Origin: a virus
DNA: 64,000 nt
IMG/VR virus record: IMGVR_UViG_3300044640_000597
Location: 21,966-85,965 of that record
Direction: 5' to 3' (one strand)
The position numbers were made by a program, and so were the translations under genes. Below are positions 836 to 64,000 of the stretch, piece after piece (position 1 is the stretch's first letter; each line of letters begins with the position of its first letter). Under the pieces are notes generated by a model that saw only the letters and a program-made list of their open reading frames with translations, was not told the origin of the DNA and searched no databases.

Positions 836-3800
836 TTATAACATACAAATTTGTGTAACATCTGATTGGGCAACCTTCGTAGAAGTTGCATCGTAATAAG
901 CTTGAAGCATGCTCATTATGTTATTAGCATTCTCAGTACTATCCCCAAATGTTCTCTTGTTTAACCAGTCTCCCCCAACGATATGCTTCTTATTGTTAGT
1001 GGTTCCGAACATGCTCAAATATACGGTTTTATCCGTAGTCTCTGTAGGGTTAGCTTTAACATAAACACCAGACTCCCCTTTTGAAGTTCGGAATACCATT
1101 ACACCAGGAGCTTCTTGATTACCCCCGAACTTCTTATTAGATATTTTGTGTACCTTTTCTAGTTTAGTATACTCTGGTCCGAGTGAGTGTCTTTGGAGAA
1201 GGTTTCTTCCTCCTGGACGAATCTCTCCATACACTCTAAAGAATCTAGCTAAGTCCTCAGCATCAAAGTATTTACCTGTCTGCATCTTAGCAGACTCTCC
1301 GTGCATGTAATCAGCTACACTTATTGGCTTCAAAGTCTTACCAGTTATAGCTGTGTTTACTTCTCTGCTCATAGGGTTAAGCCAGAACTGAGGAGGGATC
1401 ATAGACACATAGTTAAATGCAGACTTTCTAAATCCATTAGAGATCAAAGCATGCATGCATAAGTCGAATCCTATCTGTCTAATCTTTTCTACATTCTTCT
1501 TATACTCCTCCAGATTGTCTGTCTTCTTTACATAAGCCTCTGGTTTGTATAGAAGGTTATGTAAGTCATCTTGAATTCTAGACTTTTCCTCTCTTGAGAA
1601 CTGTTGAGTAGCATCGAAGTTAAAAGTCTTGAAGTTTTTAAACTTACTGTTATTCTCATCTTCAGTAAGCTTCATCAAGAACTCGTTACCTGTTAGGTTA
1701 CCAAACTTTGATGCAGCCTCTTCAATCCTTTTCCACAATGTAAGAGCAGGTTTACCCTTCTTAGTCTTTGGATCTATAGTAGCAGGATCTATATAACCTG
1801 GCTTGTACAATCTCTCACTGTACTCTACATTCATGTACTGTGCTATAGGAGATTCTTCTTTAGTTAGGATAGTAAACATGATAGCAGCATTTACGTCTCT
1901 GTGATGATCCGTAGTCATAGCATCAAGACTAGCAGCTGTTCTGATTGCTTCTTTAAACTTAAGAGAAGACTCAGATGTAGTCATAGGGAATAGAACACTG
2001 GATACCCCAGCCATCTCACTTAGCAGATTGTCATATCCTCTTTCAAATCCATAAATAGAATTCTCATCAAAGAATTGAGTAAGTACGTTCTCATCTTTAC
2101 CTCTTCCGTAGAATGCTATCGGGGCATTGTTTAATTTACCACCTTTTGGATTGTCAAACTTTTTCTTCTTTCCCATATGCTCCTGAATTGCTTCAAGTCG
2201 GTTGATACCAGAGGTTGTATCTGGAGAGATAAGTCTGAATGCTTCTTTGAGTTGGCTACCTGCAGTGTACATCTTAAGGAAGTTTTGCAAAGCTCTTTCT
2301 TTATTGACAGTTAATGTCATTATAGATTGACGAGTCATTGCAGTTGTTTCAGAAATGTTCTTGTAGTTAGTAGGAAGGTCTTCACTACCCAATGTAATTC
2401 CGTTCTTATCAGCTACTTCTTTATAAGCTTCATTAATCTTAGACAGGTCATCATTGAACTTGATAGCCATTGTATCTACAAAGTCTCTGATGATAGGCTG
2501 ATTAAGGAAGTGATGTAGAAGCTCTGTATCCCCATAGTATTGTATCCACAAAAGTTCTACAGGGAAAGTAACTGCATTATCATTTACTATATAATGGTAC
2601 GGAGCTTTAGTAGCATCCACAGCTGCGTTAAGATAACGAGACATTATTTTATCTGTAGGTTCTCCAGCATCATATGCGAATCCACTAGATGCAGGAATTA
2701 TTTCTTGCATCTTAGTGTTAATCATCTCCCCTGCAATCTTAACTGCAAACTCAGATTTAAGATTAAAGTTATCAGATACAGTAGCAATGTTTCTTCCAGC
2801 AAGTGCATTTGCCCATAGACCTCTCATCTTGTTTCCAAGCATGTTTCTAACAGCACTGGTAGTTTCATACATACCACCTGTAAACACTTTGCTTGGGGCC
2901 AACTCTCTATTCAATTCAATTATAGAAGTTCTTATATTTTTAAGTACTTCGTTATCCAAAGGTCTAAGTGTTTCTAAGTAATGCTCAGGAGAAGAGAACA
3001 CAGCCTCGATTGTATCAAGTACAATATTGGTCAACTCCTTATCAGATATCTTAGATACATCTTTAGTTTTAGCAAGAGTTTTATAATCAGGTCTTACTTT
3101 AGTACCATCCTCGTTTAGCTCAGGGAATAACAGGAACATTTTATCTACGTCAAAGTCAGATCCCATAAGCTTTACAAGCTGTGGGGGAACTACTATTGCC
3201 TTTTCGTATCCAGCAGGAAGTACAGATTTAATCTTGAAGATAATGGTAGATGCTTTATCCTGGTTAGGGATACGGTAACCAATGATTCTTCTGAGTTCTT
3301 CTGGGATGTTATTAGCATCTAAGTCTGCACCTGGTTCGATTCCAAACTTTCTAAGTACATCCTCTCTGATCATGATCTCAGCATGAGCTAGTCTAGTACC
3401 TCTCCTTTTATTTGTAGGATGGTCCACAACCTCAAGGAATTTCAAAGAACGATCTACTTCGAATCCACCTAGAGCTGCAGTTTGTACAGCTTCGTACCCT
3501 GGTACATATTGTTTAAATACTCTGTTGTTATATACACTAAGCAATGCACTTTGGAAAGCAGTACCGTATACAGGGAAGTCCATTGGTATTGCGAACCTAG
3601 CAATACCAGTAACAGGATCAATAGTTATATCAAGAGCCTTAATGAAGTTATCACTTAACTCTCTTTCTATAGCCTGCTCCTCAATTAGGTTTCTGATATT
3701 CTTAAGTAGTCTGGCTTTTGCTTCTTTAAATTCTTGAGCACCTTTTATAGAGTCAACATTTGGTTTCTCAGACTTAAGTTTGTTTACTACCTTTCTGAAT

Positions 3801-58465: not shown

Positions 58466-58600
58466 TTATCCTTGCCCCTTGCTAACTTTCTTGTAAAGTT
58501 TTGAACTTTTAAGTTTAGAGTGCTTTTTCTTAGAATGAACCCCTGGACGTTTCTTTCTAGGGTTTGGGGACCAGGAGTTTACGGAGTTTATTTTTGCCAT
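58466..58600 (-). CDS. 44-aa highly basic protein (not in ORF track)
   Basis: MAKINSVNSWSPNPRKKRPGVHSKKKHSKLKSSKLYKKVSKGQG; A-rich leader and TAAATTTG box at 58618-58625. Confidence 0.65.
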   Translation of the reverse strand: MAKINSVNSWSPNPRKKRPGVHSKKKHSKLKSSKLYKKVSKGQG

Positions 58601-59949: not shown

Positions 59950-60697
59950 TATGTCGATACTCGTTACTAAGCTCGTTACTAATAAATTATTATGTGTGTT
60001 GGAGAGATTGATTGCCAATACTCTCACACTCATTAAGTGTGGTATCATGATGACTATCTAACTAGTTGTATAACATGGTATCACACTTTATCCTCTTGTG
60101 TCTGATTAACAGAGACACAGATAGGGTATGACTGTAACCCATAGCAATACAGTTATTATACATTCTAGTTATAACTTTAACTGGTAAAACTTGTACTGAT
60201 ATACAGGTAATCCTATACTAGATAGGTTCTTGGTTCCGTGGCTTGACATCCATTGTTAAAACAAGTTGTTATATGATACCTTAAATTAAACCTGGAATAT
60301 GGTTGCACCGCTTGTAGGTCATGGTGTGTAAAAGTAAAACAGCCTTCTAATAATCCTAAGTGGATAGCTTCTCACTGATGCTTAAAGTGTTCTTTTTATT
60401 TAATTACTTATTTATTTATTTTCCTTAATTAATGGGTGGGATTAATGTAGTTAATATCCTATACCCAAAAACCTAAGAAATGCAGAATATGTGTTGATAC
60501 TTACTTAAACACTATTCCACCTATCAGTACTCTAAAAGAGAGGTTGTTAAACTGATATTAAAAGGTGTAAGACAATCCTATTTAGTCCTAAGCATGACAC
60601 TAAACTGCTTATTCATAGTATCGTTACTCTTTCTTTAACCGAGTATCTATCCAGTAAGCTGCTGGCGTTTGTGGGTGTCCAGATAACCCTCATATTT
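59950..60697 (+). ncRNA. Candidate large structured ncRNA (~740 nt)
   Basis: No plausible ORF; nested long-range helices and many hairpins (see findings); ends at a predicted ribozyme cleavage site. Confidence 0.45.
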
Positions 60698-60872
60698 AAT
60701 GCACCATAACTATCTTCCCAAGGGATAGCAGTTGTAATAACTAATGATATTGTAATAGGGTCTCAACAATACTGTTGCAACAGGTTGAGTAGGAATGCAC
60801 AATTCCCTAAATATCAAGACAGCTATGTTTGTCATTAGTATTAGTTGTTACAACTGAGTGCAGAGGGGATAT
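60692..60872 (+). ncRNA. Twister-like ribozyme (type P1) with large P5 insertion
   Basis: P1 ATATT/GATAT, UAA, P2 TGCA/TGCA, P4 CTATC/GATAG with loop TTCCCAAGG, pseudoknots CC:GG and CCC:GGG, conserved GA, 17-bp P5 stem. Confidence 0.65.
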
Positions 60873-61167: not shown

Positions 61168-61359
61168 ATGAGTAACAAGACTAAATTTGCTGAGGATATG
61201 ACAGCCTTCGGGTTGTCTATCCTTATCATTATCCTTATTGTGATAATGATGACATCATGCTCTACATCTAGAGAGTATGGATATCAAGACCATCTAAGAT
61301 CTACTCACCACAAGAACTTTATCTCTAAAGATAATGGTGGTTGTGGGTGGAATAAGTAA
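61168..61359 (+). CDS. Small putative lipoprotein
   Basis: Hydrophobic stretch ending in a lipobox-like MTSC. Confidence 0.55.
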   Translation: MSNKTKFAEDMTAFGLSILIIILIVIMMTSCSTSREYGYQDHLRSTHHKNFISKDNGGCGWNK

Positions 61360-61455
61360 GGACTTTACCTATTGGACTTCATACAATAGCAGCTTAACGG
61401 TGAGGCTTAAACCGTTCCTTTTAATCTGTAATCAATAACAAACACATATAAAATC

Positions 61456-62094
61456 ATGACACAGTTAAAACAAACAGCGGTCGAATGGGTATTCGACAAG
61501 ATGAGTAATGTATTAGCTGGTAATTCCAGTGTAACTACTCAAGAAATACTAGAGCAAGGACTAGCAATGCATCAAGAACAAATTGAACAAGCTTGGATGG
61601 ATGCAGAAGATAATCTGCTAACCGAAGAGTCAGCTAAGTTCTTTGCAGAGAAATACTACAACAAAACATATAAAGTAGTAGAGGAGGAAGTAGTGGATGA
61701 CGAAGGTGATGGCACTATTCCTCAAGCTGAAGACTGGTTCATTGATATGGTCAATGAAGATGCTCATCCAGATGATGACTCAGAGTATCGTCAGTATCGT
61801 GAACGTGCTGATGTACCAGAATACATCATTGCATCTATTAGTCTTGATGCTTACGAGACATATGTATTCGAAGCTACTGCTGATGGTAACATAGTAACCT
61901 TCGATGAGTATGGTGGATTAGCAGCGAGATGGGGTGATGCTAGATGGTGGGATGCTGAAGCTGCTGTTAAATCATGTATGAGAAACAGCTATGATTTAGT
62001 ATCTGTTAAAGGTAATCACTATCTATTCAAGCTAGTTAAACCTGATGAGCTCACTCATTTCGATGGTGATGAATCAGATAGAATCAGCTATTAA
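61456..62094 (+). CDS. Hypothetical early protein (KQTAVEW N-terminal module plus acidic domain)
   Basis: 212-aa ORF with A-rich leader. Confidence 0.65.
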   Translation: MTQLKQTAVEWVFDKMSNVLAGNSSVTTQEILEQGLAMHQEQIEQAWMDAEDNLLTEESAKFFAEKYYNKTYKVVEEEVVDDEGDGTIPQAEDWFIDMVNEDAHPDDDSEYRQYRERADVPEYIIASISLDAYETYVFEATADGNIVTFDEYGGLAARWGDARWWDAEAAVKSCMRNSYDLVSVKGNHYLFKLVKPDELTHFDGDESDRISY

Positions 62095-62095
62095 T

Positions 62096-62464
62096 ATGAA
62101 GACACTTACCTACATCAAGAGAGTTGAGATAGAAGAAACAATACCGTTTCCTATCATCACATTTGTTGCTGAGAAAGTGCGAGTTAGTACAGGAGATAGC
62201 TCATGGTTTGACATGGGCTATACTCCTAGACTCGATGGTCTGACAGTACATCAGTATCGTAAACTCCATAATGCTTGGGATAGAGATATCGATATAGCCT
62301 TAGAAGAATATGTAAAGACTACATATAATCTACGTAGTGGATGGGGTCAAGTAGACTACCATGTCTATTCAGCTAAACAACTTGGTATGCCTGAGCTTAC
62401 TAAAGTTGATCCAAAGTTTAACGATGATCATGCTGATCTAGTTAGAATGTTTACAGGGGCTTAG
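62096..62464 (+). CDS. Hypothetical early protein
   Basis: Likely start MKTLTY at 62096, 1 nt after the upstream stop. Confidence 0.6.
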   Translation: MKTLTYIKRVEIEETIPFPIITFVAEKVRVSTGDSSWFDMGYTPRLDGLTVHQYRKLHNAWDRDIDIALEEYVKTTYNLRSGWGQVDYHVYSAKQLGMPELTKVDPKFNDDHADLVRMFTGA

Positions 62465-62469
62465 TCCCC

Positions 62470-62532
62470 TTTTACTAATGCAGCCAGTGTAACAACTGAA
62501 GGTCACAAGCCCTTTAATGCAGAGTGGTAAAA
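62470..62532 (+). ncRNA. Twister self-cleaving ribozyme (type P1)
   Basis: P1 TTTTAC/GTAAAA, UAA, P2 TGCA/TGCA, P3 CAGT/ACTG, P4 AAGG/CCTT, loop TCACAAGC, pseudoknots GC:GC and CAC:GTG, catalytic GA. Confidence 0.9.
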
Positions 62533-62572
62533 TCAATTCATTCATTTAATTTATTATTTAATCATCAAAATC

Positions 62573-63178
62573 ATGATGAACAACACAATCAACAGTGGCT
62601 CGTTGCAGGGATTGCAAGCGGGTCAAACCCTTTTACTCCAAGCTCGTAAGGTTAATGGAGGTAAGATTCAATTGGAATTTGCTGAGATTGTCAAAACACA
62701 GTCTACTGCAGCAAACCCACTTGCTATCTTTAACAAGTCAGACGACCGTTTCTCACAAGGCAATGGTGCTCGTCGTGCTTGGCTTACTGCTGAAGCTAAG
62801 GATGCTTCGGTTTATCTCAACATCAACCTGATGGATGATGCTGATTGGGAGGTTGACCAAATGGGACGTGAGATACTCCCATTGAATGTCATCAATCCAA
62901 TTGCTATCATCAATGCGGAAGCATTCCCATTGAAGGTGCAAGTTGAGGAGACTGTTACTCCTACAGATTGGCAGGCAAGCAACGTCGAAACTGCGGCTAA
63001 GCGTCGTGGTAAAGATGGGGACTTCATCACTCACCAAGGTATGTACATCTTTGCTAACACTCGTGTAGTGTTTAACAAAGCTAATCACATCTTCCTTGAA
63101 GTGGATGCTGCTAAGTCAAATGTATCTACTGGCATTCCTGCAAGTGGTAGCTTTGACTCAAGTCCGTTCTTCAGCTAA
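62573..63178 (+). CDS. Hypothetical early protein (possibly ssDNA-binding)
   Basis: 201 aa, beta-rich, C-terminal ...DSSPFFS tail; lies before the DNA polymerase. Confidence 0.5.
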   Translation: MMNNTINSGSLQGLQAGQTLLLQARKVNGGKIQLEFAEIVKTQSTAANPLAIFNKSDDRFSQGNGARRAWLTAEAKDASVYLNINLMDDADWEVDQMGREILPLNVINPIAIINAEAFPLKVQVEETVTPTDWQASNVETAAKRRGKDGDFITHQGMYIFANTRVVFNKANHIFLEVDAAKSNVSTGIPASGSFDSSPFFS

Positions 63179-63191
63179 TTATAGCTGAGTA

Positions 63192-63272
63192 AATCAGGTA
63201 GCTCAACTGGTAGAGCACTGCAAGTTCTGTTGAACTCTTGCATGGATATGGGTTCGAATCCCATCCTGATTT
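63192..63272 (+). tRNA. tRNA-like RNA with aberrant, elongated anticodon arm (no assignable anticodon)
   Basis: Acceptor AATCAGG/CCTGATT, D arm GCTC-AACTGGTA-GAGC and T arm ATGGG-TTCGAAT-CCCAT are all canonical. The anticodon arm is ~25 nt. Confidence 0.7.
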
Positions 63273-63436
63273 CAAAAACCCTCTCATTGTGTACTACGAA
63301 TAACCATTGAATAGACTATAGCAGGTTTGGGGTTGCCTGCTGTCTGTTCTCTGGCATATAAGCAAGAGAAAACAAGGGACACCGTTCGTTTGTTACTAGT
63401 TACGAAACAATTTAATTTAATCTAAATCAATAACTT

Positions 63437-63670
63437 ATGTCAAGAATGAAATTAGTATTAGACTTGATGGAGTCTGGGACTTATCAAGCGTTTGAACTAC
63501 AAGCTATGATGGCTAGCCAACGTGGAGAAAGACAATTCCAGTTTGGTAATGCATCGTATGATGTAGAGTTTGCTGCCAATGTGATGGCTTATATTTACCA
63601 CAAAATTGCACAACAACACCATGAACAACATTTTCTTTATCAGCAAGAACCAGGCACTGATAGCGAGTAG
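63437..63670 (+). CDS. Hypothetical protein
   Basis: 77-aa ORF with A-rich leader; overlaps the polymerase start. Confidence 0.55.
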   Translation: MSRMKLVLDLMESGTYQAFELQAMMASQRGERQFQFGNASYDVEFAANVMAYIYHKIAQQHHEQHFLYQQEPGTDSE

Positions 63671-64000
63671 TTTCAAGACATGTACAATCGAAGAAGCTGT
63701 TGAAGATCTACTAACTAGTAAGATACTAGGTGTGGATACAGAGACAGAAGGATTTGATTTCACATGTAAGAAACTGCTAATGCTGCAGATCGGTGATGCA
63801 GAGCGTCAGTATGTAATTGATTGTAGAGATCTAACTTATGCAGATCAAGTGCAATTGAACAGGGTATTAAACAATGAGGATATCGTCAAGATATTCCACA
63901 ATGCAAAGTTTGATTACAAGTTCATTAAGCACTATCTTAAGATAGATACTGTAAACATTCATGATACATACCTATGTGAGAAAATATTACACTGTGGGAA
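63621..64000 (+). CDS. Family A DNA polymerase, N-terminal 3'-5' exonuclease domain (runs off window)
   Basis: My translation: MNNIFFISKN...ILGVDTETEG...LQIGD...IFHNAKFD...IHDTYLCE, giving ExoI/ExoII motifs. The polymerase domain itself is outside the window. Confidence 0.8.
   Translation, partial: MNNIFFISKNQALIASSFKTCTIEEAVEDLLTSKILGVDTETEGFDFTCKKLLMLQIGDAERQYVIDCRDLTYADQVQLNRVLNNEDIVKIFHNAKFDYKFIKHYLKIDTVNIHDTYLCEKILHCG

Follow-up and report, generated by a model that had tools for sequence, protein, structure and literature searches.

The element at positions 62470-62532 (plus strand) of the DNA analysed here is, as far as its sequence can tell, a genuine type-P1 twister ribozyme. The window, by which we mean the whole stretch that was analysed, is the last 64 kb of an IMG/VR record of 85,965 bp rated complete by CheckV, and the element lies in it directly upstream of a gene coding for a protein of 201 amino acids (aa). 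The original prediction had named it a twister from the letters alone, an identity now carried by a significant match to the Rfam family RF03160, by its retention in nine of eleven related contigs, by compensatory changes among these relatives and by covariation in a wider set of phage twisters. Together with an optional hairpin, P0, the ribozyme would extend over 62456-62532 on the plus strand. We regard it as probably a functional type-P1 twister with the optional stems P0 and P3, one that processes a polycistronic message and so uncouples the 201-aa gene from its upstream neighbours.

Structure of the twister core

Twister ribozymes are built from the essential helices P1, P2 and P4 and from a double pseudoknot in which loop L4 pairs with L1 (T1) and with L2 (T2) (PMC5408937). 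The stems P0, P3 and P5 are optional (PMC5408937, PMC6154101), P0 being found in 21% and P3 in 78% of twisters (PMC6154101). The type-P1 form (RF03160) goes back to Roth et al. 2014 and has been reviewed since (PMC5408937, PMC6154101). The cleavage chemistry is established for the twister family; in the twister of O. sativa, G45 is the catalytic nucleotide and A7 the cleavage-site partner (PMC6154101).

A complete type-P1 core, with P1, P2, P3, P4, T1 and T2, is recognised at 62470-62532 from the RF03160 match, the predicted fold and covariation. P1 pairs 62470-62475 (UUUUAC) with 62527-62532 (GUAAAA) through six AU-rich pairs, and the predicted cut follows it between U62476 and A62477, the next base being A62478. 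P2 consists of four pairs between 62479-62482 (UGCA) and 62518-62521 (UGCA). The optional P3 spans 62485-62498, with CAGU (62485-62488) and ACUG (62495-62498) closing a 6-nt loop, and P4 joins AAGG (62499-62502) to CCUU (62511-62514) in four pairs around the 8-nt loop L4, UCACAAGC. Two stretches of complementarity would form the pseudoknots: the three pairs of T1 between 62504-62506 (CAC) and 62524-62526 (GUG), and T2 between G62483 C62484 and G62509 C62510. The conserved active-site nucleotides AAGC are present as A62507, A62508, G62509 and C62510, and G62522, directly 3' of P2, is the equivalent of O. sativa G45 (PMC6154101) and hence the putative catalytic guanosine. Pairing is perfect in every helix and wholly Watson-Crick in P1, P2 and P4.

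All the parts that the original prediction had listed, namely P1 to P4, both pseudoknots, the U/AA cleavage site and the catalytic G, with perfect pairing, are thus recovered. The word "textbook" that it attached to them fits these elements but not the details, as T1 is CAC/GUG where the consensus has CCC/GGG, the linker between P4 and P2 (UAA) is shorter than in the consensus, the model score stays below the curated cut-off and the ribozyme appears to extend into P0. The element is an ordinary member of a known ribozyme kind. It shares with other type-P1 twisters the helices P1, P2 and P4, the optional P0 and P3, both pseudoknots, the U-A step followed by A, the AAGC of L4 and the G 3' of P2; it differs from them by its T1 variant, its shorter linker, its AU-rich P1 and a score 15 bits under the cut-off.

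A search with the twister-P1 covariance model, the check proposed with the original prediction, gave a full-length match over 62472-62530 (model positions 1-68 of 68) with 52.1 bits, which is significant (E 3e-11 when 201 nt were searched; 9.5e-9 when the search covered the 64-kb window on both strands and all 4,227 families) but below the gathering score of 67.2. The twister is consequently seen at E-value thresholds only, and Rfam applied at its gathering threshold gives no twister match in the window. It is the sole RF03160 match of the 86-kb genome. A model of the local family, hereafter R1, scores the window copy at 88.3 bits. Minimum-energy folding of the 71-nt element returns P1 to P4 with an energy no better than that of shuffled sequences (z -0.57), as is expected of short AU-rich helices held by tertiary contacts.

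Conservation and covariation among related phages

The related set comprised 11 viral contigs encoding relatives of the 201-aa protein with 56-94% identity. Full-length twister-P1 matches (40.7-59.4 bits) stand at the same place in nine of them. The two others, L010 and L012, are more distant relatives that carry the 201-aa gene without a twister at the junction; in L012 the junction (1030-1195) holds a long hairpin that matches no Rfam family at E values up to 10. The existence of the gene without the ribozyme in these two contigs indicates that the twister is helpful, not essential, for the 201-aa gene.

U62476, A62477, A62478, the AAGC of A62507-C62510 and G62522 are invariant in all eight aligned relatives, even though the flanking proteins of the relatives with this invariant core are only 69-94% identical. 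The helices change in a compensatory way. In L009 the first pair of P1 has gone from U-A to G-C and a T2 pair from G-C to A-U, and in L008 a P3 pair has gone from G-C to U-A, with GAAA as the loop, and two pairs of P4 are swapped. Double-sided changes affect five pairs among five distinct sequences, a count reached by none of 500 shuffles, and no slid register came close. T1 is constant in the related set; its support comes from the complementarity of its strands and from the fact that both strands depart from the CCC/GGG consensus. Compensatory changes that keep the fold point to selection on the RNA fold and not merely on the DNA sequence.

A probable processed leader for the 201-aa gene

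The twister and its flanking genes have the same orientation. The upstream open reading frame (ORF), of 139 aa, occupies 62045-62464 on the plus strand, and the downstream ORF, also on the plus strand, runs from 62573 to 63178; its length of 201 aa in the ORF list agrees with the original prediction. So does the distance between them and the ribozyme on the downstream side, the core ending at 62532 and the ATG standing at 62573, so that an AU-rich spacer of 40 nt (62533-62572, plus strand) separates the two. Neither protein belongs to a known family in Pfam or PHROGs, and the ESM Atlas gave no usable lead on the flanking proteins, the 201-aa one included.

Comparison of gene order among the relatives links the ribozyme to one of these neighbours. 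In L002, L004, L006 and L007 the twister is preceded by homologues of the 139-aa ORF and of a 212-aa ORF, as in the window. The 139-aa ORF is absent or truncated in three others: it is lost in L011, and both it and the 212-aa ORF are missing in L008 and L009, whose upstream genes are homologues of ORFs located further upstream in the window. Six relatives have a spacer of 40-41 nt between ribozyme and ATG, L009 has one of 44 nt, and the P0-twister unit (in L009 the twister alone) keeps its place 40-44 nt before the 201-aa start codon even where the upstream genes differ. Since the twister and its constant spacing track the 201-aa gene and not the upstream genes, the ribozyme would belong to the downstream leader, and the arrangement fits a role as the processed leader of the 201-aa gene. 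The claim of the original prediction that this gene would receive a structured 5'-OH leader and be separated from upstream genes is supported to this extent: it follows from known twister chemistry and fits the synteny.

No sigma-70-like promoter was found between the ribozyme and the ATG, where scan counts did not exceed those of shuffled sequences, and no TAnnTTTG box of the Bacteroidota type occurs on the plus strand in 61182-63148. On this strand, the closest candidate that has a TTTG at -33 is found at 58563/58589, at the front of the plus-strand block; there, at 58563-58596 (plus strand), a TTTG box is followed 22 nt on by TATTTTTG, a candidate Bacteroidota-type promoter for the ribozyme-containing transcript. 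Because no promoter motif separates ribozyme and ATG, read-through from upstream is the simplest source of the message. We hold this view weakly, as promoters of the phage's own polymerase may differ from the motifs scanned. Small shares of the sequence words of the stretch are contained in 22 freshwater or river RNA runs, and the contigs assembled from four RNA runs are short and cover parts of the 139-aa and 201-aa ORFs, with a coverage gap at 62324-62554 that takes in the ribozyme; they show neither transcript starts nor transcript ends.

From these data and from what is known of twister chemistry, the following course of events can be proposed for the replication-gene arm of this 86-kb, apparently freshwater, crAss-like phage. 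Transcription would probably be polycistronic and directed towards the DNA polymerase gene. Once transcribed, the element would adopt the double-pseudoknot twister fold and cut itself between U62476 and A62477. The 5' product would carry a 2',3'-cyclic phosphate at its end, seven bases past the P0 hairpin. The 3' product would begin with a 5'-OH and keep P2, P3, P4 and both pseudoknots, having lost the partner strand of P1, which should free GUAAAA together with the AU-rich, unstructured 40-nt spacer before the ATG. The likely effect would be to uncouple the 201-aa gene from its upstream neighbours and to give it a constant, protected leader, from which a gain in stability or translation might be expected.

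The P0 hairpin and the upstream message

Immediately before P1 and abutting it, the sequence of 62456-62469 (plus strand) can form a stem-loop, GGGG-CUUAGU-CCCC. The TAG stop codon of the upstream ORF (62462-62464) sits inside its loop. The hairpin is kept in L002, L004, L006, L007, L008 and L011; its loop differs in L008. It stays with the ribozyme in L008 despite a different upstream gene and in L011 despite the deletion of the 139-aa ORF. Of 91 distinct phage twisters, 50 have a GC-rich hairpin whose end lies 2-8 nt ahead of the cleavage U, as compared with 6 and 13 of 91 in two controls; a stricter hairpin criterion gave 41 of 95 twisters, against 4 and 8 in the controls. What comes after the hairpin in GC-rich phages is a P1 strand rich in C and G, with no U-run. 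A consensus terminator scan lists 62456-62468 with the tail CTTTTACTAA, a call that arises because P1 begins with UUUU.

A hairpin that travels with the ribozyme, is enriched before phage twisters and lacks a U-run in GC-rich phages has the properties of the optional P0 stem of a twister. The segment 62456-62469 is best read as such; on this reading the full ribozyme is 62456-62532, and its 5' part coincides with the end of the upstream ORF. This bears on two positional claims of the original prediction. The start six nucleotides after a stop codon holds for the core, which begins at the sixth base after the TAG, but with P0 included the start moves back to 62456; likewise, the placement between two putatively early genes describes the core alone, P0 overlapping the stop codon of the upstream ORF.

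The hairpin also invites an explanation in which the element serves above all to form the 3' end of the upstream mRNA: the hairpin and its U-run would act as a leaky intrinsic terminator, the twister would cut the transcripts that read through it, so that this mRNA would in every case stop right behind a protective hairpin, and whatever happens to the 201-aa gene would be a by-product. We consider this unlikely. It would account for the terminator-like score of 62456-62468 with its tail CUUUUAC, for the equivalent junction of L010, which holds only a hairpin with a U-run, for the hairpin and U-run that L009 has some 15 nt before its twister, and for the fact that P0 would remain on the 5' product after cleavage; yet when gene content changes the twister tracks the 201-aa gene and not the upstream gene, and termination is not the conserved property of the hairpin, given the GC-rich phages without U-runs and, in the window, a stem of merely 4-5 pairs followed by a run of four U. 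Within the preferred reading, that of a twister leader with a P0 stem, the hairpin may also have weak terminator activity in this AT-rich phage.

In L002, L006, L007 and L011, three further A-U pairs (AAAGGGG...CCCCUUU) can lengthen P0 so that it reaches into the 5' strand of P1, over the equivalent of 62453-62473 of the window, and such a stem would be a competitor of P1. At this place the window reads ACA, not AAA, which leaves one extra P0 pair at most.

A wider subclass of phage twisters

A pattern search with the T1 variant of the window returned at least 114 stretches of IMG/VR, and R1 found 110 copies in 80 of the pattern-matched loci together with the relatives. The subclass is present in at least 80 other phage contigs. 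In an alignment of 89 distinct phage twisters, 93.7% of cells are paired, double changes occur in 15 of 16 pairs and P2 covaries, although the alignment was fitted to the structure of R1 itself and the pair counts are biased towards that structure. The covariation score of these 89 sequences is 0.635, as against 0.149 for shuffles. Many twisters of the wider set are flanked by co-oriented ORFs, with a stop codon and a start codon each no more than about 40 nt away.

None of the subclass matches in 20 other phage loci reaches the RF03160 gathering score. The twister-P1 cut-off of Rfam therefore overlooks a phage subclass defined by T1 CAC/GUG, P2 UGCA and a frequent P0; as this subclass is abundant in viral metagenome contigs, routine annotation under-counts such ribozymes.

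The spread of a near-identical subclass through at least 80 otherwise unrelated phage contigs, often with two or three copies per contig, is also what would be seen if the twister were mainly a selfish element or a module boundary, at which cassettes are exchanged or lost by recombination, its cleavage being of little consequence here. The loss of the 212-aa and 139-aa ORFs in L008 and L009 and the deletion of one of them in L011, with the breakpoint at the P0-twister unit, agree with a boundary. It is harder to reconcile with such a role that every helix and pseudoknot is kept by compensatory changes, the mark of selection on the RNA fold, and that the constant 40-44 nt to the ATG suggest a role in the message; we judge this explanation more improbable still than that of a terminator. 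That the likeness arose by chance, or that the element is a decayed relic without activity, is hardly credible: the score below the Rfam gathering cut-off and the ordinary folding energy might be cited for it, but against it stand the E value in the window, the intact catalytic and pseudoknot positions, and a core that is invariant and helices that covary across relatives whose flanking proteins have diverged. The twister reading of 62456-62532, as a processing element in front of the 201-aa gene, is the one that we retain.

Many of the unrelated contigs carry more than one twister of the subclass. Two each were found in L016, L017, L018, L019, L028, L034, L045, L049, L050, L053, L054, L089 and L092 and three each in L014 and L056; the copies share one strand at distances of 0.3-1.8 kb, as though single genes were enclosed between them. 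Hammerhead ribozymes and RAGATH RNAs scored above the Rfam cut-offs in sister loci: Hammerhead_II in L013, L019, L024, L028 and L032, a RAGATH-1 hammerhead at L031:1158-1234, RAGATH-24 at L026:6243-6443, and RAGATH-28 at L018:5131-5216 and L028:3365-3449. The presence of hammerheads and RAGATH RNAs beside sister twisters is the known ribozyme-rich neighbourhood of phages.

Relation to known ribozymes

Engineered insulators of the RiboJ type place a self-cleaving ribozyme in the 5' leader, where its cleavage strips off the variable RNA before it, so that what remains is a fixed leader, structured and with a 5'-OH end. Like them, the window element, a putative self-cleaving ribozyme, stands right in front of a coding sequence; RiboJ-type insulators are synthetic, hammerhead-based parts used in E. 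coli, whereas the window element is a natural phage twister.

In bacteria and metagenomes, twister, hammerhead and RAGATH RNAs have been reported close to phage genes (PMC6765202, PMC8782182), and one preprint places hatchet ribozymes largely in Crassvirales. The role of twisters in bacteria and phages is unproven, the processing of polycistronic messages being one role that has been discussed (PMC6765202, PMC5408937). Like the phage-associated ribozymes described earlier (PMC6765202, PMC8782182), the window copy is intergenic and co-oriented with small genes of unknown function; unlike them, it stands in the genome of a crAss-like phage and is stably tied to the leader of one conserved gene. 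Our search of the literature found no paper on twisters in crAss-like phages.

Twisters have been known near phage genes since 2014, with a purpose that is unproven, and the window copy adds little that is new in kind. Its interest is that of a clean test case: a single canonical twister in a complete 86-kb genome, at a fixed distance from one conserved gene and behind upstream genes that vary.

Genome context

Among the proteins encoded by the window are a major capsid protein of the crAss type (PF23898, E 4.6e-83) and a large terminase subunit, and its minus strand codes for giant proteins of 1,300-2,500 aa. At its right end, the plus-strand block leads into a gene for a family-A DNA polymerase, which starts at 63606 (seen over 63606-63998) and is continued at the first bases of the record (L127:2-1678). 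The division of this gene between both ends indicates that the record is a permuted circle, has joined ends or was cut inside the gene. The RNA runs that contain pieces of the window stretch are river, lake and freshwater metatranscriptomes, and these habitats, though the shares are small, suggest a freshwater crAss-like phage. Its host is presumably a member of the Bacteroidota, as for other crAss-like phages. A blastn search of 61400-64000 against GenBank phages gave no match, and Rfam revealed no other ribozyme in the window or in the first 22 kb of the genome.

Neighbouring RNA elements

At 63192-63272 (plus strand), 13 nt past the 201-aa ORF, lies a tRNA-shaped RNA (RF00005, 52 bits) in which a long hairpin replaces the anticodon arm and 16 nt stand where 7 are expected. 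ARAGORN found no usable anticodon in it, and most copies lack one. The RNA is kept in 8 of the 11 relatives with a total length of 72-92 nt; its middle varies in length and sequence. Its conserved parts are the acceptor, D and T arms, and the relatives show compensatory changes in the acceptor. RNase P may cut at this RNA, which would set the 3' end of the 201-aa message.

A second twister-like candidate, at 60692-60872 (plus strand), lies 1.78 kb upstream of the ribozyme and was recognised from its sequence and fold. It has an insert of about 130 nt in P5, CC/GG in place of the GC/GC of T2, an L4 of 9 nt and no P3; folding yields P1, P2, P4 and P5 (z -2.9). Its core is identical in L002 (913-1035) and in L125, where the P5 insert is unrelated, and it matches no Rfam family at E values up to 10. 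A seemingly similar twister-like core with a shorter insert occurs at L010:31-140.

Taken together, the twister and the tRNA-shaped RNA raise the idea that the 201-aa message is cut from a long transcript by RNA-based processing, its 5' end at 62477 made by the twister and its 3' end at 63192 by RNase P, with P0 serving as a 3' stabiliser of the upstream fragment. We put this forward tentatively and regard it as doubtful. If it were true, the replication arm, with the candidate at 60692-60872 included, would be segmented by ribozymes and tRNA mimics and not by promoters and terminators.

Near the start of the genome, three tRNA matches lie side by side at L127:2694-2801, 3014-3106 and 3287-3360, two over-long ones (93 and 108 nt, 37-40 bits) adjoining one normal tRNA (71 bits). 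The over-long matches are probably further tRNA-shaped RNAs with inserts.
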